From the IMG/VR virus record IMGVR_UViG_3300027996_000014, positions 1 through 64,000 of that record: a DNA stretch of 64,000 bases; one strand, 5' to 3'. The DNA comes from a virus. Shown here piece after piece: positions 24,639 to 49,778 of this stretch. Made by a program: the position numbers and the translations under genes. The notes beneath the pieces were generated by a model, which saw only the letters and a list, made by a program, of their open reading frames with translations, did no database searches and was not told the origin of the DNA. The number at the start of each line of letters is the position of its first letter. Within the stretch, counting starts at the first letter, position 1.

Positions 24639-24644
24639 TAGTAC

Positions 24645-26158: not shown

Positions 26159-26184
26159 ATTATTAACCCTTTAAACTTATAACA

Positions 26185-26352
26185 ATGAAAAATTTAATAA
26201 CATTTATATTGATGATTACATTAGTATCATGCGGTACTTCTAAACATAAATCATGTACTAAAACAAAAACTTATCGAGTTAAAACTAATAAACAAAAGTT
26301 TAACTCAAATAAAAATAATAGTTCTTTTAATAAAAAAAGACATAACTTATAA
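26185..26352 (+). CDS. small basic lipoprotein (55 aa)
   Basis: Manual translation MKNLITFILMITLVSCGTSK...; lipobox LVSC. Confidence 0.6.
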   Translation: MKNLITFILMITLVSCGTSKHKSCTKTKTYRVKTNKQKFNSNKNNSSFNKKRHNL

Positions 26353-26391
26353 TAAATTATGTCTTAAATTAACCCTTTAAATACTTATATT

Positions 26392-26718
26392 ATGAACAGA
26401 TTTAACCTCATTTGCAAGTTCTTACGTGGTAAAAACATGCTATCAATCGAAACAATTAATCATTATTTAGATAATCCACATTTAATGGATGATATTGAAT
26501 TAATGCTATATCCTACTATACAAAAGAAAATTAAAGATTTCATTAAGCTTAACATGAAGCTTAATAAACATATTGATGTTATGTCAATAGTAAATTGTAT
26601 AGATTTTAGACCAGATATAGTTGTTGAAAATCTTACTTACTTAATTAATACAGGTCAAGTTAAAAAAGAAATAATTGGATTTAATAGTTCTTACAAGTTA
26701 ATTAATCACTCACTTTAG
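26392..26718 (+). CDS. hypothetical protein, possible wHTH C-terminus
   Basis: 108 aa ORF with A-rich leader. Confidence 0.55.
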   Translation: MNRFNLICKFLRGKNMLSIETINHYLDNPHLMDDIELMLYPTIQKKIKDFIKLNMKLNKHIDVMSIVNCIDFRPDIVVENLTYLINTGQVKKEIIGFNSSYKLINHSL

Positions 26719-26742
26719 AGTAATTTATAGCTTTAACTTAAT

Positions 26743-26782
26743 TATAATCATTTGTAATATCATATTATTACAAATGATTATA
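26743..26782. repeat. perfect 17-bp inverted repeat
   Basis: TATAATCATTTGTAATA-tcatat-TATTACAAATGATTATA. Confidence 0.8.
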
Positions 26783-26801
26783 TTATTAAAACAATAGAAA
26801 T

Positions 26802-26990
26802 ATGAATTGGAAACATTTAATATTCAGTATTATTATGGTAATAATATGGATAATAATCTTTTTATGGATGATATTTAAATTTGCTGATAATAATAAGAAA
26901 AAAAGATATCAGTTTTTAAGAGAATCATTCTCACCAATGTCTAATAATATTGAAATTCAAAAAGCTTACGATATAATAAGAAATAAATAG
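26802..26990 (+). CDS. small membrane protein
   Basis: N-terminal TM segment; preceded by TAAAACAATAGAAATATG, a variant of the junction motif. Confidence 0.6.
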   Translation: MNWKHLIFSIIMVIIWIIIFLWMIFKFADNNKKKRYQFLRESFSPMSNNIEIQKAYDIIRNK

Positions 26991-26994
26991 TACT

Positions 26995-27147
26995 ATGAAA
27001 GAAATAATGGACGAAATTAGAAATAAATTTAATAAAGAAATACAAGAGTATCATTCTTTAGAAAATGCTGCAATAATAATAATTTATGATCGTATTGCAT
27101 CAGAAGTATACTTAGAAAAACTATCACAAATGATGGATAGGAATTAA
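26995..27147 (+). CDS. small hypothetical protein (50 aa)
   Basis: Manual translation MKEIMDEIRNKF...MMDRN. Confidence 0.45.
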   Translation: MKEIMDEIRNKFNKEIQEYHSLENAAIIIIYDRIASEVYLEKLSQMMDRN

Positions 27148-27171
27148 TCACATTTAAAAACCATTTACATT

Positions 27172-27621
27172 ATGAAAAATATTTTATTAATAATTACCTT
27201 ATTTGTAAGCCTAGTAGGGTTTACACAAAACACTAATAACTTTAGTAATACAGATTTTGTTATAAATGGTCAAATTGAAAATGCAACTAACTGTAACTAT
27301 ATCATATATGACATAGATAAAAATGGACTATGGAGATTTCTTGAAAAAGTATCTATTAGTTCAAAATTTAAAATTACTGTTAAAGCTTATAAAAGTTATT
27401 TTATAATTTTTAAGACTAAAAATAAAGCAAAACATTTGTATTTAAATTTAGCAAGTGCTTCAACTGAAAATTCAATTATAGACTTTGAATATGATTCTCA
27501 TATTGTAATGTATTATGATGTGAAATATAGTAAATATTCATTTTACTTAGTTGATGATAATAATCCTACAATACTTAGAAATAAAATGTATGAACAGGAT
27601 AATTTATATAAAAATAATTAA
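27172..27621 (+). CDS. secreted protein
   Basis: Signal peptide MKNILLIITLFVSLVGFT followed by Q. Confidence 0.6.
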   Translation: MKNILLIITLFVSLVGFTQNTNNFSNTDFVINGQIENATNCNYIIYDIDKNGLWRFLEKVSISSKFKITVKAYKSYFIIFKTKNKAKHLYLNLASASTENSIIDFEYDSHIVMYYDVKYSKYSFYLVDDNNPTILRNKMYEQDNLYKNN

Positions 27622-27871
27622 AAAAATGGTGCTTGGCAGAGTACTATACCCAAAAAGAATAGTTTTAGACTTGGGGAAGTCACATAAACTAAGTTAAAAT
27701 CTTTTACCGTTGTATATTGTTAAATTATATATAATAGGTTTTTCGTTAGCTTATCGTGTTGTATAGTAATAGCGGCAGTTAGAACTATGCAATATAAAAA
27801 TGTTATGGGGGGAGTATGAGAATTTACTTAGAAACCCCCACAACTTTATCAATCTTTTAATCACACATATT

Positions 27872-28225
27872 ATGAAAATATTATACACATGCCTTATCAT
27901 GTTATTGACAACAACTATGGTAAAAGCTCAGATAGCAGACTTTGAACTGCAAGAATTAAAAATAGATATGAAACAACGTGTATTCAAATGTGAACTTACA
28001 TTAATCGTTGATGATATTTATTACCCTATTACTCCACCAAATTTTAGTGGAGATATTATTACTTTTTTGTTAGCAGAAAATCAAGACTATCATATAATAG
28101 TAAATAATGAAATCTATATAAACATCTCTCAATTATCGAGAGAAGTAATAGATGAACGAGACTTAGATATATCATCTGATGTTTTGTATAAATTTGAAAA
28201 AGGAATATTAGTGTTTAACTATTAA
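27872..28225 (+). CDS. secreted protein
   Basis: Start reassigned to MKILYTCLIMLLTTTMVKA-Q, a signal peptide. Confidence 0.6.
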   Translation: MKILYTCLIMLLTTTMVKAQIADFELQELKIDMKQRVFKCELTLIVDDIYYPITPPNFSGDIITFLLAENQDYHIIVNNEIYINISQLSREVIDERDLDISSDVLYKFEKGILVFNY

Positions 28226-28493
28226 ATACTTAACATTCATGAAATTTCCACAATAAAACATTATAGAGGGGGAGCCCTCCTTATGTTTAAAGGGAGAGAG
28301 GCTGGTAGAAGTACCAGCCTTTCGTTTATTTAAAATAATACAATTACTATAAAACCTTGGTAATTGTACAAACTTATAATCTATCTATAGATTCGTCAGA
28401 ATTAAATTCAGTACGCAATTGTTATACATATTAAAGTTTAAATAAAAAAAAGGTAAAATTTAAATCATATAAAAATCTAAAAATTAAATTATT

Positions 28494-29042
28494 ATGAAAA
28501 AAGTAGATGAATTACAAGCAGGAGAATTACTATTGGTAAGTGCTAAAAGAGTAAGCGGAGATAAAGTTTCGTTATGTTTTGCACAACAAGTAGTTAATCC
28601 TAATTCTCGTCCTCAAGCGATTACGAGTTTATTAAATAAATCAGATGATCGATTTACACAAACTGCAAATGCCCGTTATGCGTGGATTACTGGTGCAGAG
28701 GCTGATATTTTAGCACAGTTTGAAATAGATTGTTCTGACATCCCTGAAAAAGGAGATGAAAAAGAAGTTGGTATGCTTAACCCAAAAGTTAATGGAGAAT
28801 ACTGTAATATTCAAATTACAGAAACAACTGATGGAAATAAATATGAAGTTGAAAACAGTGAGAAAACTGCAAAACGTGCAGGTAAAGATGGAGATTTCAT
28901 CTATTCTGCTGATGGTAAACATATTTTTACTAGAGCTACTGTAGTATTAGGAAAAGCACAACATGTATTTATGAAAGATACACAACGTGGTCAATTAGCA
29001 TCTTCAGATGTTGATTCAGCAATTGATGATGCAATTGCATAA
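28494..29042 (+). CDS. hypothetical protein with acidic tail
   Basis: 182 aa, followed by a terminator. Confidence 0.7.
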   Translation: MKKVDELQAGELLLVSAKRVSGDKVSLCFAQQVVNPNSRPQAITSLLNKSDDRFTQTANARYAWITGAEADILAQFEIDCSDIPEKGDEKEVGMLNPKVNGEYCNIQITETTDGNKYEVENSEKTAKRAGKDGDFIYSADGKHIFTRATVVLGKAQHVFMKDTQRGQLASSDVDSAIDDAIA

Positions 29043-29064
29043 TTTATAAGCTGAGAATATTAAG

Positions 29065-29098
29065 AAAAAGGGGGAAGTTTTACTTTCTCCTTTTTTTA
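29065..29098 (+). terminator. intrinsic terminator
   Basis: AAAAGGGGGAAG-tttta-CTTTCTCCTTTTTTTT. Confidence 0.75.
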
Positions 29099-29304
29099 TA
29101 CTTTAAAACAAATTAAAATATAAGTTATTTAAAAATAATAATAATTTATAATTATATTTATAAAACAAGATATGAAAAAATTAAATTTAGTAGTAATAGG
29201 TACACGATTTGGGTGTCTAGGAATAATATTAGTTGCTATCATTTGGACAGCTTTATTGGTAAAACTATTTATATCATTAATATAAACAATCAAAAGCTAA
29301 ACAA

Positions 29305-29487
29305 ATGAAAGCAAATAGAAAATTTAATGAAGAACATTGGAGGTTAAAGAGACATTTACGTTCTATACAAGCAGAACTGCTTAATTGCTACGCTATTAAT
29401 CATAAGTTCAGCTATGGTAGAAATCCTCACTATTTCCGTGAACAAATAAAAATAACTACACAAAAACTTAAGCCTTATGGAAAATAG
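29305..29487 (+). CDS. hypothetical protein
   Basis: 60 aa ORF overlapping the next gene. Confidence 0.55.
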   Translation: MKANRKFNEEHWRLKRHLRSIQAELLNCYAINHKFSYGRNPHYFREQIKITTQKLKPYGK

Positions 29488-30157
29488 AAAAAGACATCAG
29501 GTACACATGTTACCTACAGAAGATAAGAGTCAGATAGGCTTATGTAAGTACAATGAAAGGAAAGGTATATTTTATGGTGAGACACCAACAATTGAAGACA
29601 GTTTAATTGACCAACACCTCTACTTCACAAATGATGAAGAGATTAAGGAAGGTGATTGGGTGTTATGGTTTTGGGATGGTGGTCAAATAGGAGTTACTGA
29701 GCCTCAACAGTACTTAGGAGGGGAACAGGTGTTGAATAATGGACATAGAAAAATCACAGCATCAACAGACCCTTATCTGATTAATCAGATTAAACCTTAT
29801 GACACAAGTAAACCTTATGGGATTGAGTTTCCTCAACCATCTCAAGCATTCATCAAAGCTTATTGTGAACAAGGTGGAATAGATGAGGTTGATGTTGAGT
29901 ATGTTAAATTTACCAACAGCATTCCTGAGTGTGACTATGACCCAACACTAGGAATGTGTTCAGTATGTAGTGATGTAGCTGATTGTATTCACGACACATA
30001 TACATACAAACTCAAACTAAACCCAGACAACACTGTAATCACTCACTTGATTGAGGAGAAGATGTATAGCATAGATGATATTGAGTCTTATTGTGAGAAG
30101 TATCCAAATGATACTGAGTTAGGTAGAGAGATTAGAAAGCTTAAATATAAACAATAG
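29477..30157 (+). CDS. hypothetical phage protein
   Basis: 226 aa, ends in junction repeat A. Confidence 0.7.
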   Translation: MENRKRHQVHMLPTEDKSQIGLCKYNERKGIFYGETPTIEDSLIDQHLYFTNDEEIKEGDWVLWFWDGGQIGVTEPQQYLGGEQVLNNGHRKITASTDPYLINQIKPYDTSKPYGIEFPQPSQAFIKAYCEQGGIDEVDVEYVKFTNSIPECDYDPTLGMCSVCSDVADCIHDTYTYKLKLNPDNTVITHLIEEKMYSIDDIESYCEKYPNDTELGREIRKLKYKQ

Positions 30158-30161
30158 AGAT

Positions 30162-30323
30162 ATGATATTAGATATAATAAGTGTGACAATGTACAAAGAC
30201 CATAGAGAATACGCCCTAAAGAATTACCTAGAGGTTATTGATTGGTATAGAATGCCATTCTATAAGCGTTGGTTCATTAAGAAACCTATATGTGAATATG
30301 TCAAGTTAACCCCTAAACAATAG
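30162..30323 (+). CDS. cassette mini-gene (53 aa)
   Basis: Manual translation MILDIISVTMYK...LTPKQ; bounded by two A repeats. Confidence 0.65.
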   Translation: MILDIISVTMYKDHREYALKNYLEVIDWYRMPFYKRWFIKKPICEYVKLTPKQ

Positions 30324-30327
30324 AGAT

Positions 30328-30519
30328 ATGAAAGCACAATATTTTAAAAGAGCTGAAGATGTATTACATCTATTTAATCCAATAACAAGGTTTTTGATTA
30401 AGCATAATATAGTTTCTGCTGAAACAACTGTAATTAAATGTAAAGAATGTAAACGAATACCTACCGAAGTTTTTGGTAGTTATTGTTGGGATTGTTTACC
30501 TAGACCAATTAAACAATAG
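30328..30519 (+). CDS. cassette mini-gene, Zn-finger-like (CxxC...CxxC)
   Basis: CKEC and CWDC; bounded by A repeats. Confidence 0.65.
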   Translation: MKAQYFKRAEDVLHLFNPITRFLIKHNIVSAETTVIKCKECKRIPTEVFGSYCWDCLPRPIKQ

Positions 30520-30523
30520 AGAT

Positions 30524-30652
30524 ATGAAAAAGAAAATAAAAGAATGGTTAGAGAATGACCATTATCAAGTATTTAACTCCTTAATGTCTGTAATATTGGG
30601 AAGTATAATAGCTTTTGTTATTCTTTATTTATGGGGTACTAAGGGGTATTAA
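30524..30652 (+). CDS. cassette mini-gene, single TM (42 aa)
   Basis: Manual translation MKKKIKEWLEND...VILYLWGTKGY; bounded by A repeats. Confidence 0.6.
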   Translation: MKKKIKEWLENDHYQVFNSLMSVILGSIIAFVILYLWGTKGY

Positions 30653-30663
30653 ACAATAGAGAT

Positions 30664-30756
30664 ATGACTGAATTATTCTACTGGATTTGTAGTATAGGAT
30701 TTATGACAACAGTTATAGTTATAGTATTTAACGATAACATATTTAAAGATGATTAA
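30664..30756 (+). CDS. cassette mini-gene, single TM (30 aa)
   Basis: Manual translation MTELFYWICSIGFMTTVIVIVFNDNIFKDD. Confidence 0.5.
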   Translation: MTELFYWICSIGFMTTVIVIVFNDNIFKDD

Positions 30757-30931
30757 TAGTACTAAAGAATGGGATTTTATGGATGATAAAGAAAAAAAGA
30801 GGAGTATGTTTGACGATATAGAAGAAGGTAAAAACCGATTCACATTAGATGACCCTATGGGTAAACTAGTTAAAGAAGCTTTTGATATTATAAAAGTTGT
30901 TAAGAAATTAAACAAAAATAAAGATGAGTAA
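30749..30931 (+). CDS. cassette mini-gene
   Basis: Ends LNKNKDE within a repeat B variant. Confidence 0.6.
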   Translation: MINSTKEWDFMDDKEKKRSMFDDIEEGKNRFTLDDPMGKLVKEAFDIIKVVKKLNKNKDE

Positions 30932-31115
30932 AGAAGATAACATAACAGTACAATGGGAAAAGGAATATGAAAAATGCAAAGACCCTGTATATTTCTATTC
31001 TCATTATCTTATGATAAAAAATACAGATGGTACTATGTCTGTACCACCACCTCTTAGTGATAAAGCTAAAGAAAATATGAGAAAATGGATAGGATTTAAA
31101 CCAAAACAAAGATGA
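30924..31115 (+). CDS. cassette mini-gene resembling a terminase N-terminal helix
   Basis: EYEKCKDPVYFYSHY. Confidence 0.55.
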   Translation: MSKEDNITVQWEKEYEKCKDPVYFYSHYLMIKNTDGTMSVPPPLSDKAKENMRKWIGFKPKQR

Positions 31116-31333
31116 AAAGAAATAAAAAGCTATTAATTGCTTTGTTATTACTAACACCAGCAATTATATACATAATATATTTTACAGATAGTTTATCTGT
31201 AAAATATTCATATGTAAGATTAAAGAATAGAACTGAATTTAGAGATGTTCCTGTAAAACGTGTTGACGATATAGGATTTAGAATAAATGGAACCTATTAT
31301 ACAGAATTTGATATTGATAGTTTAGCATATTAA
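31112..31333 (+). CDS. cassette mini-gene, N-terminal TM
   Basis: 73 aa between repeat B and a repeat A variant. Confidence 0.6.
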   Translation: MKRNKKLLIALLLLTPAIIYIIYFTDSLSVKYSYVRLKNRTEFRDVPVKRVDDIGFRINGTYYTEFDIDSLAY

Positions 31334-31345
31334 AACAATAGAGAT

Positions 31346-31615
31346 ATGAAAAAGATAATGTTAGGTCTAGGTTATTTAACCTGGACAATGTGCAACATTT
31401 TGTGCATTTATGGATTTGGGGTAGGGTTATATAAGTTATTCCAATTAGAGAGTGTAGGAACTATACTTACTTTTTTAGCTTTAGGATTATTTTTCCTATT
31501 AATGGCTGCAATATTAAGCATGTTATGCTTAGGGTTAGTATCTATTGCATTTGGTGATGAAAAGTTAGCAGAAAAAGTAAATAAAGCGCTTCCTTCTTTT
31601 ATGAGAGAACTTTAA
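31346..31615 (+). CDS. cassette mini-gene, two TM
   Basis: 89 aa, hydrophobic. Confidence 0.65.
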   Translation: MKKIMLGLGYLTWTMCNILCIYGFGVGLYKLFQLESVGTILTFLALGLFFLLMAAILSMLCLGLVSIAFGDEKLAEKVNKALPSFMREL

Positions 31616-31630
31616 ACCAAAACAAAGAAG

Positions 31631-31810
31631 ATGAAAAAAGCTGAAGAAATTTTTGTAAGAATAGGGTTTGAAGATATTATAGTACCAATTAAAGATGCTG
31701 ATGCTGTAATAGAAACACCTACACCACAATACTTGGTAGGATATGAAGATGCAGAAGGTAATGAATGTGAAGAAGATGGTACTTATTTAAACCAAAACAA
31801 AGATGAGTGA
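31631..31810 (+). CDS. cassette mini-gene, acidic (59 aa)
   Basis: Manual translation MKKAEEIF...DGTYLNQNKDE. Confidence 0.6.
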   Translation: MKKAEEIFVRIGFEDIIVPIKDADAVIETPTPQYLVGYEDAEGNECEEDGTYLNQNKDE

Positions 31811-31982
31811 TAAGAAACTATGTTGGTTTTGTAGCTCAACTTTAATAGACAACAAGGATAGAAGAAACTGTCCAAAATGTTTATGGGAAGAACGTGTTTA
31901 CAAAAAGCTTACTAAATCAGATTTTGATAATTTTATTAAAGAAACTAACAAGATATTAAACCAAAACAAAGAAGATGAGTAA
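31803..31982 (+). CDS. cassette mini-gene, Zn-ribbon-like (59 aa)
   Basis: Manual translation MSDKKLCWFC...CPKC...ILNQNKEDE. Confidence 0.6.
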   Translation: MSDKKLCWFCSSTLIDNKDRRNCPKCLWEERVYKKLTKSDFDNFIKETNKILNQNKEDE

Positions 31983-32223
31983 AATAATTTTCACAACAAA
32001 AGATGGGTATGATATAACAGAAGGAATAAAATACTATTCTGTTAGAGTAAAAGAATATAAAACAACTAAATCACCATTATGGAGTATGTGTGGACCTTAT
32101 ATTAATCCTAAAGCACATGAACCAACAGGTGAGATTGAATACTTTTACAAGAAAGAAAATGCAATAGAATTTATAAACCAAAACAAAGATGATGAAGGAA
32201 TACTACGTAAAAGAAATACTTGA
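31975..32223 (+). CDS. cassette mini-gene
   Basis: 82 aa, reads through repeat B (INQNKDDE). Confidence 0.6.
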   Translation: MSKIIFTTKDGYDITEGIKYYSVRVKEYKTTKSPLWSMCGPYINPKAHEPTGEIEYFYKKENAIEFINQNKDDEGILRKRNT

Positions 32224-32371
32224 AGCTACAAAAACTCAAGTTAAAGGTTTTGATAATTCAAGATTAATCATGGCTATTTTAGATAAATTTGAAGCAGAGG
32301 TTAGAGTTGACCAATGTGATAAAGATAAAGAGATGGCTATGAACATATTAAACCAAAACAAAGATGAGTAA
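32189..32371 (+). CDS. cassette mini-gene
   Basis: 60 aa ending ILNQNKDE. Confidence 0.6.
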   Translation: MMKEYYVKEILEATKTQVKGFDNSRLIMAILDKFEAEVRVDQCDKDKEMAMNILNQNKDE

Positions 32372-32696
32372 GAGAAAAGAAATAACAACTATGTTGATTG
32401 ATATTTTTGATAGAATCAATATAGATACTCCAAATAACTTTGATAACATTTTAGAATTTGTTGTTGAAGATGTAGAAGAAACCGCTGATAAAGAAAATTG
32501 GCATGATGGAGATGTAGCAATAGCATTTAGAAGATGGATAGAATTAAACCAAAACAAAAAAGTAAGTATAATCCACGATTGCTATGGTACTTATTTAAAC
32601 AGAAATAACAATAATATAATTGAATTTTATTGTAAAAAATATTCAAATGATACTGAATTAGGTAAAGCAATAAGAAAATTTAAATATAAACAATAA
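32364..32696 (+). CDS. cassette gene with mosaic C-terminus
   Basis: Internal LNQNK repeat remnant; C-terminus duplicates that of 29477..30157. Confidence 0.55.
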   Translation: MSKRKEITTMLIDIFDRINIDTPNNFDNILEFVVEDVEETADKENWHDGDVAIAFRRWIELNQNKKVSIIHDCYGTYLNRNNNNIIEFYCKKYSNDTELGKAIRKFKYKQ

Positions 32697-32700
32697 AAAT

Positions 32701-34560
32701 ATGGATAGAGTAGTATATGATTTGGAACAATTTCCAAATTTTCATTCAGGTGTTTTTTATGACATAGACCTAAAAACTAAAAAAGTATTTGCACTTCATC
32801 AAGAAAGAGATGAACGAATAGAATATTTTAATTATTTAATAGAGGCAAGTAAAACCATTGGAATGATAGGATTTAATAATCTTGATTATGACTATCCAAT
32901 GCTTCATTATATCCTCACTAACACAAAGAAATTATTATCTATTCCAATTGAAGAATGTCTTACTTTAATGTATGCAAAAAGTCAATGTATAATAGATTCA
33001 GAATATCCTGCAATATCACATTGGAATGTACGTATTAAACAATTAGATTTATTTAGAATACATCATTTTAATAATGTTGCAAGATATACATCATTAAAAC
33101 ATCTTCAAATGGCTATGCATTGGCATAATTTACAAGAAATGCCTTTTCATTATACTCATATGGTAACTAAAAAAGAAATTTCTGAAGTATTAGAATATAA
33201 TGATAATGATGTAATGAGTACTTATCAGTTTTATCTTGAATCTTCTAAAGAAATACAATTTAGGAAAAGAATTAGTAAACAATACAATATTAATTGTATG
33301 AATTATCCTGATGTAAAAATTGGAGAAGAGATATTAATTATTGAAAATGCTAAAGCATTAAATATTCCAATAAAAGAATTTAGAAAATTACGTACAGAAA
33401 GAGATTTTATTAAATTAAAAGAATGCGTATTACCATCTATAAAATTTAAATCTAAAGAATTTAATAAAGCGTTAGATTATTTTAAATCTAAGACTGTTCA
33501 TGCGATGAATACTAAAGGTGTATTAGATCATACTATTATTTATGGTGGTGTAAAATATGACTTTGGAGGAGGAGGTATTCACGGAACATGTGGTTCTGGA
33601 GTATTTAGAACTGATGATGAAGGAGAATTAATCCTTGTTGATGTAAGTTCATACTATCCTAATTTAGCAATTAAAAATAAATTTTACCCTAAGCATCTTT
33701 CAGTGAAGTTTTGTGAAGTTGGTGATAATCTTTATCAACAAAGAATGAAAGCTAAAGAAGAAGGTGATAAACAAATGGTAGATGCTATTAAATTAGCATT
33801 AAATGGTGCATTATTTGGAAAAAGTAATGATGAATATAGCCCTATGTATGATACTAAATTTATGTTTGATATTACTATTAATGGACAATTGTTATTATGC
33901 ATGTTAGCAGAAAGAATTACAGATGCTGGCATTAAAATAATACAAATTAATACTGATGGTATATTAGTAAAAGTTAGTAAAACTATGCAAACAAAACTAA
34001 AAGAAATGTGTAAAAAATGGGAAAACTTAACAAAATTGAAATTAGATTATGATTTATTTAAAGTAATCATTCAACGTGATGTTAATAATTATTCAGGCAC
34101 ATTTACTGATAATACAACTAAAGAAAAAGGAGCATTTGCTATTGATAAACCTTGGAATAAAAATCATTCAATGAAGGTAGTATCTATAGCTGTTGCAAAA
34201 TATTTTGTAAATGGAATACCTGTAGAAGATACTATTAAAAATCATAATGAAATATTTGATTTTTGTATTAGTCAAAAAGTAGGTAAACAATATACAGTAG
34301 AACATCATTATCTTAAAGATAACAATTTAATAAAAGAAAAAGTTCAACAATTGAATAGATTTTTTATCACCAATACTGGTGGAGCACTTGTTAAAGTTAA
34401 AGAAGATAGTTCAGTAAGTAGATTAACAGCAGGTCACAGTATTGGTCTGTTTAACAAATTTTATAAATCTGACAATTACGATTTAAAGTATAATTATTAT
34501 ATAGCTGAAGCTAATAAATTAATTAATGCTGTCGATAATGGTCAAATATCAATGTTTTAA
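32701..34560 (+). CDS. polB: DNA polymerase family B
   Basis: Exo motifs YDLE and GFNNLDYD; polymerase motifs DVSSYYPN, KLALNGALFGK, QINTDGI. Confidence 0.92.
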   Translation: MDRVVYDLEQFPNFHSGVFYDIDLKTKKVFALHQERDERIEYFNYLIEASKTIGMIGFNNLDYDYPMLHYILTNTKKLLSIPIEECLTLMYAKSQCIIDSEYPAISHWNVRIKQLDLFRIHHFNNVARYTSLKHLQMAMHWHNLQEMPFHYTHMVTKKEISEVLEYNDNDVMSTYQFYLESSKEIQFRKRISKQYNINCMNYPDVKIGEEILIIENAKALNIPIKEFRKLRTERDFIKLKECVLPSIKFKSKEFNKALDYFKSKTVHAMNTKGVLDHTIIYGGVKYDFGGGGIHGTCGSGVFRTDDEGELILVDVSSYYPNLAIKNKFYPKHLSVKFCEVGDNLYQQRMKAKEEGDKQMVDAIKLALNGALFGKSNDEYSPMYDTKFMFDITINGQLLLCMLAERITDAGIKIIQINTDGILVKVSKTMQTKLKEMCKKWENLTKLKLDYDLFKVIIQRDVNNYSGTFTDNTTKEKGAFAIDKPWNKNHSMKVVSIAVAKYFVNGIPVEDTIKNHNEIFDFCISQKVGKQYTVEHHYLKDNNLIKEKVQQLNRFFITNTGGALVKVKEDSSVSRLTAGHSIGLFNKFYKSDNYDLKYNYYIAEANKLINAVDNGQISMF

Positions 34561-34570
34561 TAATAATAAT

Positions 34571-34837
34571 ATGAAGTTTAAACCATTAGCAACAAGAGTA
34601 ATAGTATTAGTTAATCCTGATGAGGTAGAACTAGTAAAAGGAGTTATGTCATTTATACCTGAAAAAGTATTAAGAGGTGTAGTACAAGCAGTTGGACCAG
34701 GTACTAAAAAAGAACCAATGGAAATTAAAATTGGAGATGAAATATCTTATGGTAAAAATTCAGGAACAGAAGTTGAAATTGAAGGTGGAAAATACCTAAT
34801 AATGAGACAATCTGCAATTGATGGAATTATTCGATGA
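34571..34837 (+). CDS. groES: GroES-like co-chaperonin
   Basis: MKFKPLATRV...GVVQAVGPG...IKIGD...SGTEVEIEGGKYLIMRQSAI; start reassigned to 34571. Confidence 0.88.
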   Translation: MKFKPLATRVIVLVNPDEVELVKGVMSFIPEKVLRGVVQAVGPGTKKEPMEIKIGDEISYGKNSGTEVEIEGGKYLIMRQSAIDGIIR

Positions 34838-35139
34838 AAGATTTATCCAAGTATCATTATAGCGATTTTAGTAATGTAGTTACTATTTATGATAATAAAA
34901 AAAGAGCAATTATTAATGCTTTATGTATAACTATTACTTTAAAACATGCATCACTTGAATTAGGAATATCAGAAAGATGTTTACGTGATTTTATGAGTGA
35001 ATGTAATATTACAACTGAAGATGTACATGTAATGCGTAAGAGATTCGTATTATCTAAAATAAAAATAAAATTACAATATAAATTTATATTAAATGGCAAA
35101 AAAACAAATTACTGTAAAAATTCTAAAATCAAAAACTGA
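34834..35139 (+). CDS. HTH DNA-binding protein (Fis-like)
   Basis: IINAL...KHASLELGISERCL. Confidence 0.5.
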   Translation: MKDLSKYHYSDFSNVVTIYDNKKRAIINALCITITLKHASLELGISERCLRDFMSECNITTEDVHVMRKRFVLSKIKIKLQYKFILNGKKTNYCKNSKIKN

Positions 35140-35275
35140 TGTAATGTGGTATAGAGATAGAATAGGTAATACTTTTAAAGTTATGAAAATTGAAGGTAAA
35201 GATTATTATGAAATATCTACAGGAAAAAGTAGTAGTAAAATAATTTTTAAAGAAGATTGTAAAGAACTAAAATAA
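35093..35275 (+). CDS. small hypothetical protein
   Basis: 60 aa ORF in the operon. Confidence 0.55.
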   Translation: MAKKQITVKILKSKTDVMWYRDRIGNTFKVMKIEGKDYYEISTGKSSSKIIFKEDCKELK

Positions 35276-35289
35276 ATAAATAAATAAAT

Positions 35290-36363
35290 ATGAGTTATTC
35301 AGAGAGAATTTATAAAAAAGATTCTAAAAATAGAGTACGTTTATTACACGTATATGTTGAAGGGGCTGATCTAATTTCATTATCAGGTTTAATTGATGGA
35401 AAATTAAAAGAAGATAGAAGTACATGTATTTCTAAAAATATTGGAAAATCTAATGAAACTAGTCCTAATACACAAGCTGAATTTGAAGCAAGAGCAAAAA
35501 TTCAATCTAAAATGTCTGAAGGATATTTTAAAACAATTAAAGAAGCTGAGAATAATGAGGTGATTCTACCTATGTTGGCAAAAGACTATAATAAAGAAAA
35601 AAAGAAAGTAATCTTTCCTTGTTTTATACAACCTAAATTAGATGGACAACGTGCATTAGGAAACAAAATGGTACCAATGATTTCTCGTAAAGGAAAAATA
35701 ATTGATACTATGAGTCATATTCAAAAAGAATTAGATATTCTTGATAAAGAAAATGAAGTTTATCTTGATGGAGAATTATATGCTCATGGAAAAACATTTC
35801 AAGAAAATATGAGACTTATTAAAAAATATCGTCCAAGAGAATCTGAAACAGTTAAATATCATGTATATGATTTAATTATGGATGCTCCATTTGAAATAAG
35901 ATATGCAGAATTAAAAGCATTAGTAGTAAGTATGACTGAAATTAAAATAGTTCCTACTTATAAAATAGAAAATGAAGAACAATTAAAAAAATTTCATCTA
36001 CAGTTTATAGCTAGTGGTTATGAAGGAACAATTATAAGACACAGTAACGCAGGATACAGTATTAATAAAAGAGATAGTCAATTATTAAAGTATAAAGATT
36101 TTATTGATGAAGCGTATGAAGTTATAGATATCTTGCCTAGTGATAAGAATCCAGATCAAGGTGTTGTACGCTGTACTATTGGTGGTGGATATGCAAATGT
36201 GACTTTTGGTTGTGGAATGAAGTTTTCTCATAAAGAACGTGAAGAAATGTTAATTAATAAATCTGATTACATAGGTAAAATAGCAGAAATACGTTTCTTT
36301 GAATATACTGATGATGGTATACCAAGATTTCCTGTATGTCACGGATTTAGAAACGATAAATAA
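35290..36363 (+). CDS. lig: ATP-dependent DNA ligase
   Basis: PKLDG, LDGELY, EGTIIR, LLKYK and PRFP motifs. Confidence 0.92.
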   Translation: MSYSERIYKKDSKNRVRLLHVYVEGADLISLSGLIDGKLKEDRSTCISKNIGKSNETSPNTQAEFEARAKIQSKMSEGYFKTIKEAENNEVILPMLAKDYNKEKKKVIFPCFIQPKLDGQRALGNKMVPMISRKGKIIDTMSHIQKELDILDKENEVYLDGELYAHGKTFQENMRLIKKYRPRESETVKYHVYDLIMDAPFEIRYAELKALVVSMTEIKIVPTYKIENEEQLKKFHLQFIASGYEGTIIRHSNAGYSINKRDSQLLKYKDFIDEAYEVIDILPSDKNPDQGVVRCTIGGGYANVTFGCGMKFSHKEREEMLINKSDYIGKIAEIRFFEYTDDGIPRFPVCHGFRNDK

Positions 36364-36427
36364 TTAAAAATTAGAAATAATGGCCAAACCTACAGCCAGA
36401 AAAGTAGGTAACAATTAAACTATTATT

Positions 36428-36550
36428 ATGTCAGAAAAAGACAACAAAAACAACAAAGAAGAAGAGCCTATGGGTACAGTACAAATGTTATTAGGTATTG
36501 CATCATTTGTAGCAGCAATCTATGTATTGTATGTAGTATTTGCAGGGTAG
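36428..36550 (+). CDS. small single-TM protein (40 aa)
   Basis: Manual translation MSEKDNKNNKEEEPMGTVQMLLGIASFVAAIYVLYVVFAG. Confidence 0.5.
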   Translation: MSEKDNKNNKEEEPMGTVQMLLGIASFVAAIYVLYVVFAG

Positions 36551-36558
36551 TATTATTA

Positions 36559-36767
36559 AATTCTTAATACAAAGTAACGCCAGTGATTATGGTTCTGGAT
36601 CCAGGTCTGCAATGCGAACAGTAAAGAGTAAACCCTGGGAGGAGTAGCTATGAAGACATTAAATAAAGTGAGAGCTTTTGCTGAAAAGTGGTCAATATGA
36701 ACATGAAACGGAGCAATCCCTGACATGAGAAGGCGGTCCATAAAGTTAGGTTACTATATTAAGAATT
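36559..36767 (+). ncRNA. candidate structured ncRNA 1 (~210 nt)
   Basis: 11-bp closing stem AATTCTTAATA/TATTAAGAATT plus GTAAC/GTTAC; GC-richer interior with hairpins. Confidence 0.5.
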
Positions 36768-36772
36768 AAATT

Positions 36773-36971
36773 TTGAAGTCTTAGTATGTGGTAGGGCAAT
36801 GTTACTTGTTAGCAACCCACCAGTCACAATCATACGGGAAAACGTACTTAGATTTTGCTGTTAATAGGCAAGACATGGGGCTTGGTACGAAGTCTTAAAC
36901 TAATCAAGGAAGCAAGGAGTACCTTGGAATAGGGAAACGGAGGTAGATGCTCTGGTTTAGGATTACTTCAA
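36773..36971 (+). ncRNA. candidate structured ncRNA 2 (~200 nt, raiA-motif-like)
   Basis: Closing stem TTGAAGT/ACTTCAA; internal helices TGTGG/TCACA, TACG-GGAAAA-CGTA, GGCTT/AAGTC, CAAGG/CCTTG. Confidence 0.5.
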
Positions 36972-37003
36972 TTTTTTATTAACAATCTAAAACTAAACAA
37001 AAG

Positions 37004-37249
37004 ATGAGTAAATATCAAACTGAAAAACGTAAAAATAAAGAACTTCGTATAATAATATTATCTAAAGAAGAAGCAATGAAATTACAAATTAAAGAGTATA
37101 CTATTATTAAAAGAAAGTTAGATATGATAATTCATTGGTTAGGGAATCATACAGGTATTGCACCTGCTTCTTTAGAAAGTCACATGAAAAATATAGATAG
37201 AGTATTAATTAAAACATTTAAAAATGAGAAGTCTAATATTATTAATTAG
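37004..37249 (+). CDS. hypothetical protein
   Basis: 81 aa ORF. Confidence 0.55.
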   Translation: MSKYQTEKRKNKELRIIILSKEEAMKLQIKEYTIIKRKLDMIIHWLGNHTGIAPASLESHMKNIDRVLIKTFKNEKSNIIN

Positions 37250-37661
37250 AGGTTTAGCAGTTCGTACATCATTTAATGATTGGGACTGGGCCACATTACA
37301 ACTTATTCAAATTAATAAAACAAGTGAACCATTTAATAAATGGGTGCTTATGGAAATTACATTTGAAGGAGAAATAAATAAAGGAATTCCTGCTGATATA
37401 GAAGTTACTCATGAAGGAGAAGAATTAATATTAACGTGTTATGAAAAAGAAGTATTTGGTGAAATTAAACTAAAAGCTACTTATGATGAAGAAATGTTTC
37501 ATGAAGCTCATTCACCTAAATATATTCCTACATATGAAATTTTAGAAATAACTATATGTGGTGAAAATGTAAAAAAACTTAATTTATCAAAAGAATTAAA
37601 AACTAATATTCAATCAGTAGCAGAATCTTATAGAGATAAAATGATTGAAGAACTTATATAA
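37224..37661 (+). CDS. hypothetical protein
   Basis: 145 aa ORF. Confidence 0.55.
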   Translation: MRSLILLIRGLAVRTSFNDWDWATLQLIQINKTSEPFNKWVLMEITFEGEINKGIPADIEVTHEGEELILTCYEKEVFGEIKLKATYDEEMFHEAHSPKYIPTYEILEITICGENVKKLNLSKELKTNIQSVAESYRDKMIEELI

Positions 37662-37664
37662 ATT

Positions 37665-38030
37665 ATGAAATGGACTAATAAAGATATGCTTGAATTTGCT
37701 AGAGTAGCAAGTGAAGGTGCTTATGGAAATTACAGAGGTTGTAAAACTCTTATAAGTAAATTAAATAAATATAAAGAATTAAATGAAATGAGTAGATATG
37801 TAAAAGAATTGGAAGATGGTAATTATATAAGTTATGGTTTTGACAATGCATTGGGTTATTTTTTTGATTTATGTACAGCTTCTGATGAAGATGGTGATAG
37901 TGAACTTTTAATAGAAGAATCTAGCATATTATCTGGAATGAATAATGGCAAAATGATAGGATTAATGAGTATCTTTAAGCTACCTGAATCACACATTGAA
38001 ATGGTAGCTATGGATGTTCCAATAGTATAA
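37665..38030 (+). CDS. hypothetical protein
   Basis: 121 aa ORF. Confidence 0.55.
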   Translation: MKWTNKDMLEFARVASEGAYGNYRGCKTLISKLNKYKELNEMSRYVKELEDGNYISYGFDNALGYFFDLCTASDEDGDSELLIEESSILSGMNNGKMIGLMSIFKLPESHIEMVAMDVPIV

Positions 38031-41830: not shown

Positions 41831-42499
41831 ATGGGACAATTAATTTTTGTCGTTGCCAAATCTGGTATGGGTAAAAGTACGTCATTACGTAACTTAAACC
41901 CTGACGAAACTGTGATAGTGAACACAGATCAAAAACCACTACCTTTTCCTAAGTCAAAAGAACTTTATAGTGAAGAAAAGGGTAATTATATAAAAAGTTC
42001 AGATACCACTAAAGTACTTAATAGACTTAAGCAAGCACACAAAGAACCAAAGATTAAAACTTTTGTCATTGATACTTGGTCAAGAGTTATGACTGATTTT
42101 ATAATGAGTGGAGCTTTTAGATCTAGTACAGGATTTGATAAGTGGAATAACCTTAGTGGTTCACAGTATGATTTACTTAATACCATTAATGAAAAAGTAA
42201 GAGATGATTTAAATGTATATCTATTTGCTCATCCTGAAACTATTCAAGATGAAAATGGATTTTTACGTGAAAGAATAGCTGTTCAAGGTAAACAATTAGA
42301 AAAGTTTGCACCTGAAAGTTTTAGTTCAGTAGTATTATATGCTGAAATTAAAGCTTCTCCTGGTAAACCTAATGAACATATATTTAGAACTAGAAATTCT
42401 GGAGCTGATACATGTAAAACGCCTATGGGAATGTTTGAAGATGCTGAAATTTCTAATGACTTAGTACTTGTTAACGAAGCAGTTAACGCATATTTTTAA
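41831..42499 (+). CDS. AAA ATPase (Sak4/AAA_24-like)
   Basis: AKSGMGKSTSLRNL, VIDT, FAH, CKTPMGMF. Confidence 0.8.
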   Translation: MGQLIFVVAKSGMGKSTSLRNLNPDETVIVNTDQKPLPFPKSKELYSEEKGNYIKSSDTTKVLNRLKQAHKEPKIKTFVIDTWSRVMTDFIMSGAFRSSTGFDKWNNLSGSQYDLLNTINEKVRDDLNVYLFAHPETIQDENGFLRERIAVQGKQLEKFAPESFSSVVLYAEIKASPGKPNEHIFRTRNSGADTCKTPMGMFEDAEISNDLVLVNEAVNAYF

Positions 42500-48761: not shown

Positions 48762-49778
48762 ATGGAAGAAAATTATAGAAAAATTAAAAAAGTTAACCAG
48801 AGTACTTTAAAAAAAATACTGGTTAGTCCTCAAGCATATATTAGAGCTAGAGATAAAGTCGATGAGGAGGGAGTAACACCTGAACATTTTGTATTTGGTA
48901 GAATGGTGGATGATATGTTGCTGAATCCCTCTGAAATTGACAATCTTTATTATGTAATGGATGATGTAGGAACAAGTAATGCAATTAAAGAGATTATTAG
49001 AAATGTTTATGATTTTGCAAAACTAGAAAATAATATTACATTAATTGTTGATCCAAAATTAGAAGATGCTATTTTAAACGCATGTGAAATGTATAATTAT
49101 CAACCTAGGTATAAACCAGAAACTAAAATTAGTAAGATTCAAGAATTAGGAGGAACTTATTTTAATTCATTAAATAACGCAGGAAAAAAAACTATTGTTT
49201 CTAAAGAAGATTATAATAGTGCAACTATTTGCGTAGCTGCTTTAAAAACTGATAAATATATAAGTAAGTATTTTTCAAAAGCAAAAGAAGTTGAAAATTT
49301 AGATAGATTTATTATGGAATTTGAACTAAAAGGAATACCTTGTAAAGGAGAACTTGATAGAATACATATTAATCATTCAGAAAAGATTATTCGACCTATT
49401 GATTTTAAATATACTGGTAAATCAGTTCTAGGGTTTAAATTTGATTTCTGGAAATATAGATATGATTTCCAAGGTGCATTTTATACAATGGGTATATTAA
49501 GGAATGATAAAATTAAAGCTTTAGTATTAGAAGGTTATAAATTATTACCCTTTCAATATATTGTTGTAGAAAAAGATATGAATAATTTGCCGATGATTTT
49601 TGAATTTACAGATAGCATTATTAGTATGGGTCAACTTGGCGGAACATTTCCTAATGGTAAAGTCATAGAAGGTATTTCTCAAGCATTAGAAAAATATGTA
49701 TATCATAATAAAACTGATAATTGGGATTATTCAAAAGAGTATATTGATAGTGGAGGAAAAGTAATGCTAACTTTATAA
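48762..49778 (+). CDS. PD-(D/E)XK exonuclease (RecE/DUF3799-like)
   Basis: NQSTLK, FGRMVD, KGELD, IDFK, YDFQGAFY. Confidence 0.8.
   Translation: MEENYRKIKKVNQSTLKKILVSPQAYIRARDKVDEEGVTPEHFVFGRMVDDMLLNPSEIDNLYYVMDDVGTSNAIKEIIRNVYDFAKLENNITLIVDPKLEDAILNACEMYNYQPRYKPETKISKIQELGGTYFNSLNNAGKKTIVSKEDYNSATICVAALKTDKYISKYFSKAKEVENLDRFIMEFELKGIPCKGELDRIHINHSEKIIRPIDFKYTGKSVLGFKFDFWKYRYDFQGAFYTMGILRNDKIKALVLEGYKLLPFQYIVVEKDMNNLPMIFEFTDSIISMGQLGGTFPNGKVIEGISQALEKYVYHNKTDNWDYSKEYIDSGGKVMLTL

Follow-up and report, generated by a model that had tools for sequence, protein, structure and literature searches.

The DNA examined here (the window) comprises positions 1 to 64,000 of virus record IMGVR_UViG_3300027996_000014, a marine phage record of 88 kb that is 63% complete. 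The phage is probably crAss-like, and its host would be a Flavobacteriia-type member of the Bacteroidota that initiates translation without Shine-Dalgarno (SD) sequences. The window contains an array of tiny genes chained by two fixed short joints, joint A (TAAACAATAGAGATATG) and joint B (TAAACCAAAACAAAGATGA). From 30162 to 32701, 13 of 14 gene starts lie within joint A or B, far above chance, and the sole joint-free start in the array, at 30749, is a plain ATGA overlap. Joint A occurs as four exact copies and three variants (7 matches versus 1.20 expected, a count reached in none of 100 shuffles), and joint B as four exact copies, two copies in which 3 nt (AAG) are inserted ahead of the ATG, one variant and one decayed copy (8 matches versus 0.17 expected). 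All copies are on the + strand, as are the genes described below. The array of mini-genes bounded by motifs that a first-pass annotation of this DNA had proposed is confirmed by these counts. Neither joint was found before other genes outside the array in the 88-kb record. The statement that core replication genes lack the motif holds in that neither joint precedes core genes, but the gene for the family B DNA polymerase (PolB) starts at a joint A variant. Occurrence of the motif throughout the genome, which the first-pass annotation had named as the mark of a pure translation signal, does not speak against its interpretation because the motifs are absent before core genes. An outlying joint A variant with two mismatches (26788..26804) sits at the start of ORF 26802-26990, away from the array.

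The left anchor of the array is a gene for a 226-aa protein (29477..30157; phrog_15656), part of which matches a gene of Cellulophaga phage phi4:1 at 79% DNA identity, and the right anchor is the PolB gene (32701..34560; phrog_1252). An 85-nt direct repeat brackets the array. Its left copy (30080..30164) consists of the anchor-gene tail plus joint A and is 82% identical to the right copy (32619..32703), which ends in the joint A variant (32687..32703, two mismatches) that supplies the PolB start. Homology of the PolB region to the nearest relative, L177, starts exactly at 32687. The four exact copies of joint A (30148..30164, 30314..30330, 30510..30526 and 30650..30666) precede cassette ORFs of 53 aa (30162..30323), 63 aa with two CxxC pairs (30328..30519), 42 aa with a hydrophobic C-terminal half (30524..30652) and 30 aa, likewise hydrophobic (30664..30756). 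A contig of run X5 carries the first of these cassettes and diverges from the window beyond 30333. The 60-aa cassette that starts without a joint (30749..30931) contains a joint B variant with two mismatches (30909..30927) and is followed by a 63-aa cassette (30924..31115) ending in an exact joint B (31097..31115), a 73-aa cassette with an N-terminal hydrophobic segment (31112..31333), a joint A variant with one mismatch (31332..31348), and a cassette for an 89-aa membrane protein (31346..31615) with homologs of 42-52% amino acid identity in 10 other loci. A joint B with the AAG insert (31613..31634) leads into a 59-aa cassette (31631..31810; phrog_37603) whose product is 55% identical to gp137 of phi4:1 and whose depth in run X2 far exceeds that of the phage.

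In the remainder of the array, an exact joint B (31788..31806) precedes a second 59-aa cassette, with two CxxC pairs (31803..31982), and a joint B with the AAG insert (31957..31978) precedes an 82-aa cassette (31975..32223). The latter reads through the next exact joint B (32174..32192) because GTAA, the stop for that frame, is absent there, TGAAGG following instead. A 60-aa cassette (32189..32371) and an exact joint B (32349..32367) lead to a chimeric ORF of 110 aa (32364..32696), in which residues 1-65 are a cassette and the rest is made up of a decayed joint B (32545..32563, three mismatches and no ATG), a patchwork of two copied pieces (32563..32600) and the duplicated anchor-gene tail. 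The first 21 nt of the patchwork equal 50703-50723, inside a UDG-family gene, and the next 17 nt equal 31776-31792, the tail of another cassette with the first bases of joint B. The junction claimed earlier at 32544 is this dead joint, internal to the chimeric ORF. Traces of recombination in the window are the 85-nt repeat around the array, the dead joint and the two copied patches. CxxC pairs and hydrophobic peptides seen in the cassette translations agree with the cargo described earlier, and none of the 10 cassettes searched has a Pfam family.

Joint B in the window is read in different frames: the upstream product ends in LN(Q/K)NK(E)DE* in four cases, in FKPKQR* in one and in L* in one, with a single read-through (31975-32223). 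Among 238 successive joint pairs (from the window and 119 other loci), the stop of the upstream gene is the TAA at positions 1-3 in 32, the TGA of ATGA in 37 and the TAA of ATGAGTAA in 52. Joint stops are used in all three frames, and the claim of selection at the DNA or RNA level rather than on the peptide therefore holds. A logo of 350 joint B copies has sharp conservation from -15 to +4, weaker conservation of GTAAA to +9 and none upstream; since loci were collected by exact match, the logo is inflated within the pattern, the flanks being unaffected. Mixed joint orientation occurs in none of 119 loci. The spacer between the core and the ATG is 0 nt (186 copies), 3 nt (21) or 6 nt (1) in 208 of 209 non-redundant copies, and spacers of 1, 2, 4 or 5 nt were never seen among the 209.

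Adenines at -3, -6, -12 and -13 are reported as measured positive determinants of initiation in Flavobacterium johnsoniae (Baez 2019, PMC6847099), and joint B has every A known to favour SD-free initiation in Flavobacterium. The predicted probability of being unpaired over positions -15 to -1 is 0.71 at the joint versus 0.56 at 300 control starts. In four joint-bearing genomes the frequency of SD-like 4-mers does not exceed that of shuffled sequence (2/57, 19/320, 4/27 and 12/246 genes). The joint is an unpaired A/C-rich stretch of 19-24 nt at which no hairpin and no promoter was found; no strong + strand terminator was found from 28323 to 36500 or at a joint, complementarity of the joint to 16S rRNA is not above shuffles, and there is no Rfam family for it. 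The adenine pattern, the predicted openness and the stops for three frames point to a role in translation, in keeping with the SD-free stop/start signal proposed earlier. The joint is not necessary for expression: other genes of joint-bearing phages start without joints, members of the family of cassette 31346 are preceded across loci by joint A, by joint B variants or by no joint, and no joint accompanies the homolog of cassette 31631 in a Cellulophaga phage.

Joint B is spread across unrelated phages. Exact copies occur in at least 119 stretches on 115 IMG/VR contigs of 4-380 kb, always within tight one-way arrays of small genes, and number up to 28 per genome. A BLASTP comparison at E 1e-4, a threshold at which a diverged common phage factor could be missed, gave no family of proteins spanning at least three genomes of the joint-bearing backbones G000, G001/G004 and G005. 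The sole protein common to G000 and G005 is cassette 30924-31115, and the window differs from G005 in its TerL and portal PHROG families. At most 15 of the 119 joint loci share any one protein family. In 596 Gb of prokaryote genomes the joint B 18-mer is near chance, with only 49 stretches, and of 52 copies there only 17 stand at the start of an ORF that reaches 40 aa. Elsewhere joint A is far less common, with arrays in just two further contexts; the two motifs are not equivalent, joint B being the pan-phage joint. Joints are absent from the examined DNA of PolB relatives L176-L182, and the arrays are therefore sporadic. No published description of these joints was found in the literature.

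Homology between contigs stops at joints, and genes are exchanged one by one between phages within bounds set by joints. Single cassettes of 82-99% identity link phages between which no other common protein family was detected. Cassette 30924-31115 is 99.0% identical over 201 nt in an unrelated complete phage of 33.8 kb (L028/G005), and other window cassettes recur elsewhere with homology ending in joints: 31631..31810 has 82% nucleotide copies in L096 (81.8%) and L025 (82.2%), and the cassette part of the chimeric ORF is found in L008 (92.8%) and L068 (87.8%). The first-pass annotation had predicted that gene content and order would change exactly at the motifs. Block ends between loci do fall in the joint zone for 51% of 229 internal left ends and 45% of 223 internal right ends, the zone making up 2.0% of bases and receiving 3% of random positions; such breakpoints are indistinguishable from gene-boundary breakpoints kept by selection because stop and start both lie within the joint. 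Blocks are joint-bounded at both ends in 66 of 194 cases, 60 of which are a single cassette and 15 of which are at least 95% identical. Two loci on different contigs, L041 and L092, have four common cassettes (96-98%) in differing order. The 331 cassette proteins form 233 families, within which the neighbours vary, and some arrays hold a family more than once (two members of family 54 in L089 and two of family 37 in L036). A median dN/dS of 0.23 over 102 pairs, with values below 0.5 in 94 of them, marks the cassettes as real genes. Rearrangement within one phage population was not seen, the window adjacencies being unchanged in four other seawater runs; the "joints" reported in that comparison have sides of only 20-28 letters, which is the motif itself.

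The joint is probably, though by no means certainly, both a leader for translation stop and restart and a short-homology crossover point, and not an integron site. The array would be a hyperplastic accessory-gene region in a + strand gene run leading into the replication genes. Each joint would act in the mRNA as a compact translational adaptor made of stops for three frames (the first TAA, the TGA of ATGA and the TAA of ATGAGTAA), an unpaired A/C-rich leader and the next ATG, so that any upstream gene is closed and the next restarted. Short-homology recombination at joints may exchange, delete, duplicate and reorder whole genes, both within one genome and between co-infecting phages. The joint is proposed as the place of recombination because identical 19-24 letters separate unrelated genes and joint B occurs in many unrelated phages. 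In this phage, recombination could be served by its own Sak4-like ssDNA annealing protein (41831..42499; phrog_2872, E 3.3e-63), a candidate judged from sequence, and by a PDDEXK-like nuclease domain protein (48762..49778; PF12684, E 6.7e-10) as a possible exonuclease partner. A Sak4-like ATPase and an exonuclease had been suggested earlier as shuffling enzymes, together with an SSB that was not confirmed. As a whole, the earlier interpretation is supported for the stop/start signal and joint-bounded exchange and not for integron membership.

Alternatively, the joint could be a pure translation signal that does not promote exchange, with exchange occurring anywhere and selection keeping the products broken at gene boundaries. 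Selection alone predicts breakpoints at gene boundaries, roughly half of the ends of homology blocks are over 200 nt away from the nearest joint, the window array is stable across five samples, and the joint agrees with the determinants measured in F. johnsoniae and has a predicted open structure. Other genes of joint-bearing phages, however, use varied A-rich leaders, and translation alone therefore leaves 19/19 identical letters across unrelated phages unexplained. Also at odds with this alternative, which we regard as unlikely, are the identical joints flanking gene families diverged to 42-52% amino acid identity, the blocks of 95-99% identity that terminate within joints on both sides, the tandem or repeated family members in arrays, and a spacer that changes only by threes. 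It is less probable still that the joint is an operator or processing site through which a sequence-specific RNA-binding factor of host or phage switches the early mini-genes jointly. Such a factor would resemble T4 RegA, a translational repressor, or T4 RegB, an endonuclease. A letter-perfect asymmetric 19-mer over the start codon, in one orientation and one gene class, suits a factor of this kind, which may be one of the host, and start-associated sequences of Cluster K mycobacteriophages prompted the same suggestion (PMC3203893). Against it stand the lack of any family shared by all three unrelated joint-bearing backbones or exceeding 15 of 119 loci, the results for 16S rRNA and Rfam and, for a host factor, searched host genomes that make no use of the joint of their own.

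It is very improbable that assemblers fused unrelated contigs at a repeat of 19-30 nt and so mimicked shuffling. The repeat with its extension is near small k-mer sizes, and Logan contigs break at joints, but contigs of other runs cross the joints at 30148, 30510, 30650, 30909, 31097, 32545 and 32687 with at least 31 letters on each side. Independent data sets yield one order in L018/L039/L071, and likewise in L048/L060, and a single sequencing read is longer than a joint. Least probable of all is an integron-like system in which cassettes are taken up and released at joints by a dedicated recombinase, despite the co-oriented, apparently promoterless cassettes with one repeated site between them and the direct repeat that brackets the array as after circle insertion. 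The 88-kb record (63% complete) has no match to a tyrosine or serine recombinase, and the first-pass annotation had already seen no site-specific recombinase in the window; there is none among the flanking families of 119 loci, the complete array-bearing genomes G001 and G005 appear to lack one, no family is common to these two and G000, and the joint is non-palindromic, unable to fold and unlike attC. The integron-like membership once suggested is not upheld.

By analogy, the joints are best read as working like the PeSL cassettes of T4-type phages, reportedly a subject of Comeau et al. 2014, and like the "linker" or "boundary sequence" model of modular phage evolution, which is said to stem from Susskind and Botstein 1978. 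In that model, as proposed for the joints, short conserved gene-boundary sequences are homologous crossover points between unrelated modules. The boundary sequences of lambdoid phages, reportedly treated by Clark et al. 2001, are few and weakly conserved, whereas a genome may hold as many as 28 copies of the joint, which has identical letters from phage to phage. Integron cassettes (IntI, attI, attC) resemble the array in their shared orientation, a recombination-prone site per cassette and diverse small cargo, but here there is no integrase, attC hairpin or sign of site-specific chemistry, and the joint site itself would be a translation signal.

PeSLs are promoter-early stem-loop repeats between small ORFs (Arbiol et al. 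2010, PMC2839356). Like the joints, they are reported as short conserved regulatory repeats that separate small, dispensable ORFs of hyperplastic regions, where recombination between repeats shuffles, deletes and replaces whole genes with no dedicated recombinase. As described there, a PeSL combines a sigma-70-like promoter with a terminator hairpin and acts on transcription, whereas the joints hold stop codons and a start codon with neither promoter nor hairpin, and joint B spans unrelated phage backbones from 33.8 kb to 380 kb. The start-associated sequences (SAS) of Cluster K mycobacteriophages (Pope et al. 2011, PMC3203893) are likewise asymmetric short repeats at gene starts, in a single orientation, at non-structural genes only and not in host genomes; the upstream stop is sometimes inside the repeat, and a link to translation was suggested. 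In contrast to the joints, SAS are described as having an SD core 3-7 bp from the start and as confined to one phage cluster, whereas the joints keep a constant distance of 0 nt (rarely 3 or 6 nt), have no SD and occur in different phage types. The available part of Pope et al. 2011 does not describe SAS as breakpoints of gene exchange, which is seen here at the joints. What is new is the pan-phage joint B, the homology stopping at joints and the apparent three-frame stop/restart design, with no integrase or common factor found. The Kozak-like SD-free regions of Bacteroidia also share the adenines at -3, -6, -12 and -13 and low structure, but in host genes these are reported as a statistical preference only (PMC6847099), whereas the joint is a fixed 19-mer unused by host genomes. 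Its 19 exactly conserved letters exceed what an open A-rich leader requires.

Joint A (TAAACAATAGAGATATG) is present in the window as four exact copies and three variants, compared with 1.2 expected, and joint B (TAAACCAAAACAAAGATGA) as four exact copies, two copies with an AAG insert before the ATG, one variant and one decayed copy, compared with 0.17 expected. Copies of both joints lie on the plus strand without exception. The first-pass annotation had described nearly all gene boundaries of the array as joint motifs. There are 14 gene starts between 30162 and 32701, and 13 of them do fall in a joint; the sole array start outside the joints, at 30749, is simply an ATGA overlap. Beyond 30.1-32.7 kb, a single variant of joint A, at 26788, and no copy of joint B at up to two mismatches occur in the record, and the regions 5' of its other genes are A/T-rich, yet varied. 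Equal occurrence of the motif before core genes, which the first-pass annotation had named as refuting its view, is therefore not what the 88-kb record shows. A loose look-alike of joint B, CTAAAACTAAACAAAAGATGAGT at 36980-37010, precedes the start of an ORF at 37004-37249 and occupies the position where L008, a related locus on another contig, has its B array.

A logo of 350 joint B copies has sharp conservation from -15 to +4, a weaker GTAAA to +9, and no conservation further upstream than -16, so that a standard two-box promoter can be excluded. The joint is asymmetric and A/C-rich, is 19-24 nt long and lacks a G-rich core. In 208 of 209 non-redundant copies the ATG follows the 15-letter core after 0 nt (186 copies), 3 nt (21 copies) or 6 nt (one copy), and never after 1, 2, 4 or 5 nt; in the remaining copy no ATG is present within 15 nt. 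In 238 pairs of successive joints, the ORF upstream ends at the TAA of joint positions 1-3 in 32, at the TGA of ATGA in 37 and at the TAA of ATGAGTAA in 52, and in 15 it continues in the third frame to a later stop. Because the stops are spread over three frames, joint B closes every frame. An exception which shows this stop rule is the ORF at 31975-32223, where GTAA is missing from the joint at 32174 and the protein extends 11 residues further. The argument made from the window that the peptide encoded by the joint is not the selected feature agrees with these observations, there being no preferred peptide reading and stops in all three frames.

At least 119 stretches, on 115 different IMG/VR contigs between 4 kb and 380 kb long, carry the exact 19-mer of joint B. 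The 119 stretches listed contain 204 exact copies and 401 copies with up to three mismatches to the 18-mer, and mixed orientation of joints occurs in none of these 119 loci. In whole records joint B is confined to tight one-way arrays, with 22 copies in a 380-kb record (100% complete; at 89.7-92.3 and 375-380 kb), 28 in a 242-kb record (24 within the first 5.5 kb), 14 in a 210-kb record, 15 in a 125-kb record and four in a complete 33.8-kb record. A search of cultured phages with a 36-nt query containing joint B against 50,697 records, weak in that the low-complexity filter was on, returned only chance partial matches. Joint B as a host signal was rejected from its scarcity in bacterial and archaeal genomes, 596 Gb of which hold only 49 stretches with the 18-mer, in scattered taxa; only 17 of the 52 copies there head an ORF of at least 40 aa, and the few multi-copy cases are small MAG contigs resembling binned phage DNA. 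Two to four copies heading small ORFs occur in L145 and L149 (both on a single 32.9-kb contig from a Promethearchaeia MAG), L147 and L172 (from a Campylobacteraceae MAG), L161 and L157. Joint B contigs inside archaeal or bacterial MAGs are probably mis-binned phage DNA.

For joint A, 34 stretches together contain 37 exact copies, most of them single and many redundant, and 32 of the 37 stand at the start of an ORF of 30 aa or more. That it might be another universal joint was rejected, its copies being few and partly redundant and its arrays being limited to L192 and L204/L207. A third joint type, AAAGAAAACTTATAGATATG, read as (W)IKENL followed by a stop, is present at 465-500, 745-778 and 925-957 of L192, downstream of a homolog of the window's anchor gene (the ORF at 29477-30157, to the left of the array); it grades into joint A, and the joints therefore form related families.

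Blocks shared between loci (minimum 100 nt and 80% identity, n=282 across all loci) were compared with the joint zone, defined as -10 to +35 of the joint start and making up 2.0% of bases. Internal block ends lie in this zone in 117 of 229 cases on the left and 100 of 223 on the right, compared with 9 of 282 random positions. Both ends are internal in 194 blocks, 66 of which are joint-bounded at both ends; 60 of the 66 are single cassettes (small genes between joints, named here by window start coordinate) and 15 are at least 95% identical. The blocks that the window has in common with other contigs are one cassette long and end inside joints: 30915-31115 (99.0% identity to L028), 31611-31808 (81.8% to L096), 31613-31820 (82.2% to L025), 32327-32560 (92.8% to L008) and 32346-32558 (87.8% to L068). 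Four cassettes common to a 380-kb contig (L041) and a 156-kb contig (L092) are 96-98% identical and stand in a different order. The 331 cassette proteins form 233 families, 175 of them singletons, and shared families have several different neighbours. That gene content and order change at motif boundaries, as the first-pass annotation anticipated, is thus borne out by the joint-bounded blocks and by the reordering between L041 and L092, and comparison of contigs shows cassette exchange to be bounded by joints. In these data a crossover at the joint is indistinguishable from a crossover at the gene boundary.

The cassettes are real genes, as judged by their low dN/dS (median 0.23 for 102 pairs from 31 families, with 94 pairs below 0.5). 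Pfam matches were obtained for only 8 of 150 family representatives, in seven families, and include thymidylate synthase (two), a C5 methylase and a PDDEXK nuclease. In L008, which is syntenic with the window over eight matched stretches of the replication module (64-82% nucleotide identity), the B array follows the ligase homolog rather than preceding the polymerase, and it contains the same cassette as 32364. The polymerase of L177, the nearest polymerase relative, matches the window PolB at 79% of amino acids over the C-terminal 304 residues; homology between the two starts exactly at 32687, a variant of joint A, and the genes upstream differ in L177. The L177 gene is interrupted at 1904-2903 (about 33645 of the window) by approximately 950 nt with a 235-aa ORF (2058-2765), and the window PolB is uninterrupted. 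This ORF carries a motif which, judged by eye, we take to resemble that of a GIY-YIG homing endonuclease.

The window array is bracketed by an 85-nt direct repeat with 82% identity, one copy of which (30080-30164) consists of the anchor-gene tail and joint A and the other (32619-32703) directly precedes the polymerase start. The repeat may be a remnant of a single crossover with a circle or of an unequal exchange with a diverged relative; it is compatible with the insertion of a circle and is not proof of one. The last ORF of the array, 32364-32696, is a chimera of five pieces, which are, in order, a cassette also present in L008 and L068, a dead joint B, an exact 21-nt copy (32563-32583) of 50703-50723 from within the UDG-family gene, an exact 17-nt copy of the end of cassette 31631 with the first bases of joint B, and the duplicated anchor-gene tail. 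In Logan contigs from four other seawater runs, the adjacencies of the window are reproduced with at least 31 letters on either side of the joint across joints 30148, 30510, 30650, 30909, 31097, 32545 and 32687, which argues against a chimeric assembly. No variation of the array in the window phage was seen in the contigs of these four runs, parts of the window without cover counting as no finding. The apparent junctions there have sides of 20-28 letters that come from other motif-carrying genomes, and so give no evidence of rearrangement in the window phage. In the six bins with joint B copies, depths sum to 9-466, compared with 0-28 elsewhere. A 217-nt contig with cassette 31613-31808 reaches a depth of 48, compared with about 4 for the phage, so that the joint and this cassette must also be present in other genomes, more abundant than the phage in the same water.

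Initiation in Flavobacterium johnsoniae, according to Baez et al. (PMC6847099), is favoured by adenines at -3, -6, -12 and -13 and by low structure. In joint B all four positions are A, and joint A shows G at -3 and A at the other three, -6, -12 and -13; both thus resemble the Shine-Dalgarno-free initiation region of Bacteroidia. The predicted mean probability of being unpaired over -15 to -1 is 0.71 for 313 joint starts compared with 0.56 for 300 control starts from the same loci. In four joint-bearing genomes, Shine-Dalgarno-like 4-mers precede 2 of 57, 19 of 320, 4 of 27 and 12 of 246 genes of at least 100 aa, with no excess over shuffled upstream regions, and upstream regions in joint-bearing genomes are enriched for A at -3, -12 and -13. 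From the sequence and its predicted openness we infer that the joint acts as a Shine-Dalgarno-free stop/restart translation signal. Pairing of the joints with 16S rRNA was considered and rejected, the best A and B duplexes with three Bacteroidota genomes being no better than those of 200 shuffles each, and known RNA families gave nothing relevant in 24000-38000 at E values up to 0.1. Strong plus-strand terminators are absent between 28323 and 36500 and from every joint, and sigma-70-like promoter sites are at chance level (82 found, 86.5 expected). The box TAnnTTTG, which we take to be the Bacteroidota-type -7 consensus, occurs four times in the array and never coincides with a joint. Since there are no terminators or promoters at the joints, the array looks like part of one long transcript in which every gene needs a restart.

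The joint is dispensable for expression in that the family of cassette 31346 is preceded by joint A, by variants of joint B or by no joint, and Cellulophaga phage phi4:1, which has no joint B copy, carries a homolog of cassette 31631 without a joint. This counts against reading the joint as a restart signal that also serves for exchange, as does the fact that the 19 fixed letters are more than an open A-rich leader requires. A tentative proposal, which we hold to be rather less probable than not, is that joint B works as a universal adaptor in a gene commons that needs no recombinase and that its letter-perfect identity is selected for exchangeability itself, beyond translation. Unrelated marine Bacteroidota phages (a tape-measure-bearing one of 33.8 kb, one of at least 88 kb that is probably crAss-like, and jumbo phages of 240-380 kb) would then keep the same 19-24 letters between accessory mini-genes. 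Joint B would close any reading frame and restart translation without a Shine-Dalgarno site, and co-infecting phages would gain, drop or reorder single genes at it by short-homology annealing.

The integron-like nature that had been proposed for the array is not supported in the features that define integrons. Matches to the tyrosine (as in IntI) and serine recombinase families PF00589 and PF00239 are absent from the 88-kb record (63% complete). In place of attC sites, imperfect palindromes that fold as hairpins, there is an asymmetric joint that is predicted to be unpaired and has unconserved flanks. Cassettes do resemble those of integrons in being co-oriented (one strand in 119 of the 119 loci listed) with no promoter signal at the joints. 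The commonest protein family of at least 90 aa occurs in no more than 15 of the 119 loci listed, and by Pfam the ten commonest flanking families of these loci include UDG, helicases, a Toprim-like primase candidate, AAA_24 and a clamp-loader-like ATPase, with no recombinase among them. When all ORFs of at least 40 aa from the window's own record (G000) and three further whole records were compared by BLASTP, no family was common to three or more of G000, the jumbo phages G001 and G004, and the complete 33.8-kb phage G005, and thus none to G000, G001 and G005. The window record has no protein in common with the two jumbo records and exactly one with G005, cassette 30924-31115; G001 and G005 also have one common protein, likewise an array member. 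A tape-measure-like match is present in G005, whose terminase and portal fall into PHROG families other than those of the window; a search for the window major head protein in G001-G005 was blank and, having no positive control, shows little. Because no family is shared across the joint-bearing genomes, a common phage-encoded recombinase or RNA-binding regulator is unlikely at BLASTP sensitivity, and a host factor could still act at the joints.

Gene gain, loss and reordering between repeats, as in the hyperplastic regions of T4-type phages with PeSL repeats, is also seen in joint arrays. PeSL cassettes can also form mini-circles when adjacent repeats recombine, a process with which the bracketing 85-nt repeat is compatible. 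The joints differ from PeSLs in lacking both a strong early promoter and a stem-loop terminator, having no terminator-like site and being predicted to be unpaired. As with the start-associated sequences (SAS) of Cluster K mycobacteriophages, the joint is an asymmetric repeat of one orientation before the starts of non-structural genes and is absent from the host, and it differs from SAS in having no Shine-Dalgarno core and in not being restricted to one phage cluster. By analogy, the joint system works like PeSL cassettes and the linker model and looks like SAS, and the features that define integrons, PeSLs and SAS are lacking in it. No printed description of joint B was found in a search of main texts. 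Minot et al. 2012 (PMC3416800), rejected as a prior description, concerns functional gene cassettes and not joints, and the bS21-phage paper (PMC9723584) does not mention a motif in the passages covered.

Joint arrays allow the old 'linker' idea of phage mosaicism to be tested cleanly on a natural example, with a crossover site known to the letter and recurring hundreds of times. In raw metagenomes, joints mark the beginnings and ends of accessory genes. They suggest a route to translational coupling where host ribosomes ignore Shine-Dalgarno sites and are a possible ready-made part for polycistronic expression in Bacteroidota. The cassettes, which are under purifying selection, make up a large common pool of small genes and are natural candidates for host-takeover or counter-defence functions in phages of ocean Bacteroidota.

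The window makes up the first 64 kb of its parent record in IMG/VR, which is 88,208 bp long with 28.8% G+C and is 63% complete by CheckV. The window encodes a major head protein, portal, large terminase, family B DNA polymerase, DNA ligase, helicases, primase, a Sak4-like annealing protein, a UDG-family protein and a PDDEXK-like protein, and has giant ORFs on the minus strand. The phage is probably crAss-like, because short stretches of its polymerase gene are similar to crAssphage polymerase genes and one stretch of the ORF at 29477-30157 is similar to Cellulophaga phage phi4:1, and it is probably marine. The runs that contain it are seawater metagenomes, with no RNA run among those listed. 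Ahead of the gene run of the array are two strong plus-strand terminator-like hairpins of 12 pairs each, at 24645-24672 and 28296-28323. An AACCCTT(T)AAA box lies approximately 10-17 nt before the ATG of three plus-strand genes (24305-24329, 26160-26184 and 26367-26391, with starts at 24330, 26185 and 26392), and this box upstream of the array may be a phage promoter or another type of leader.
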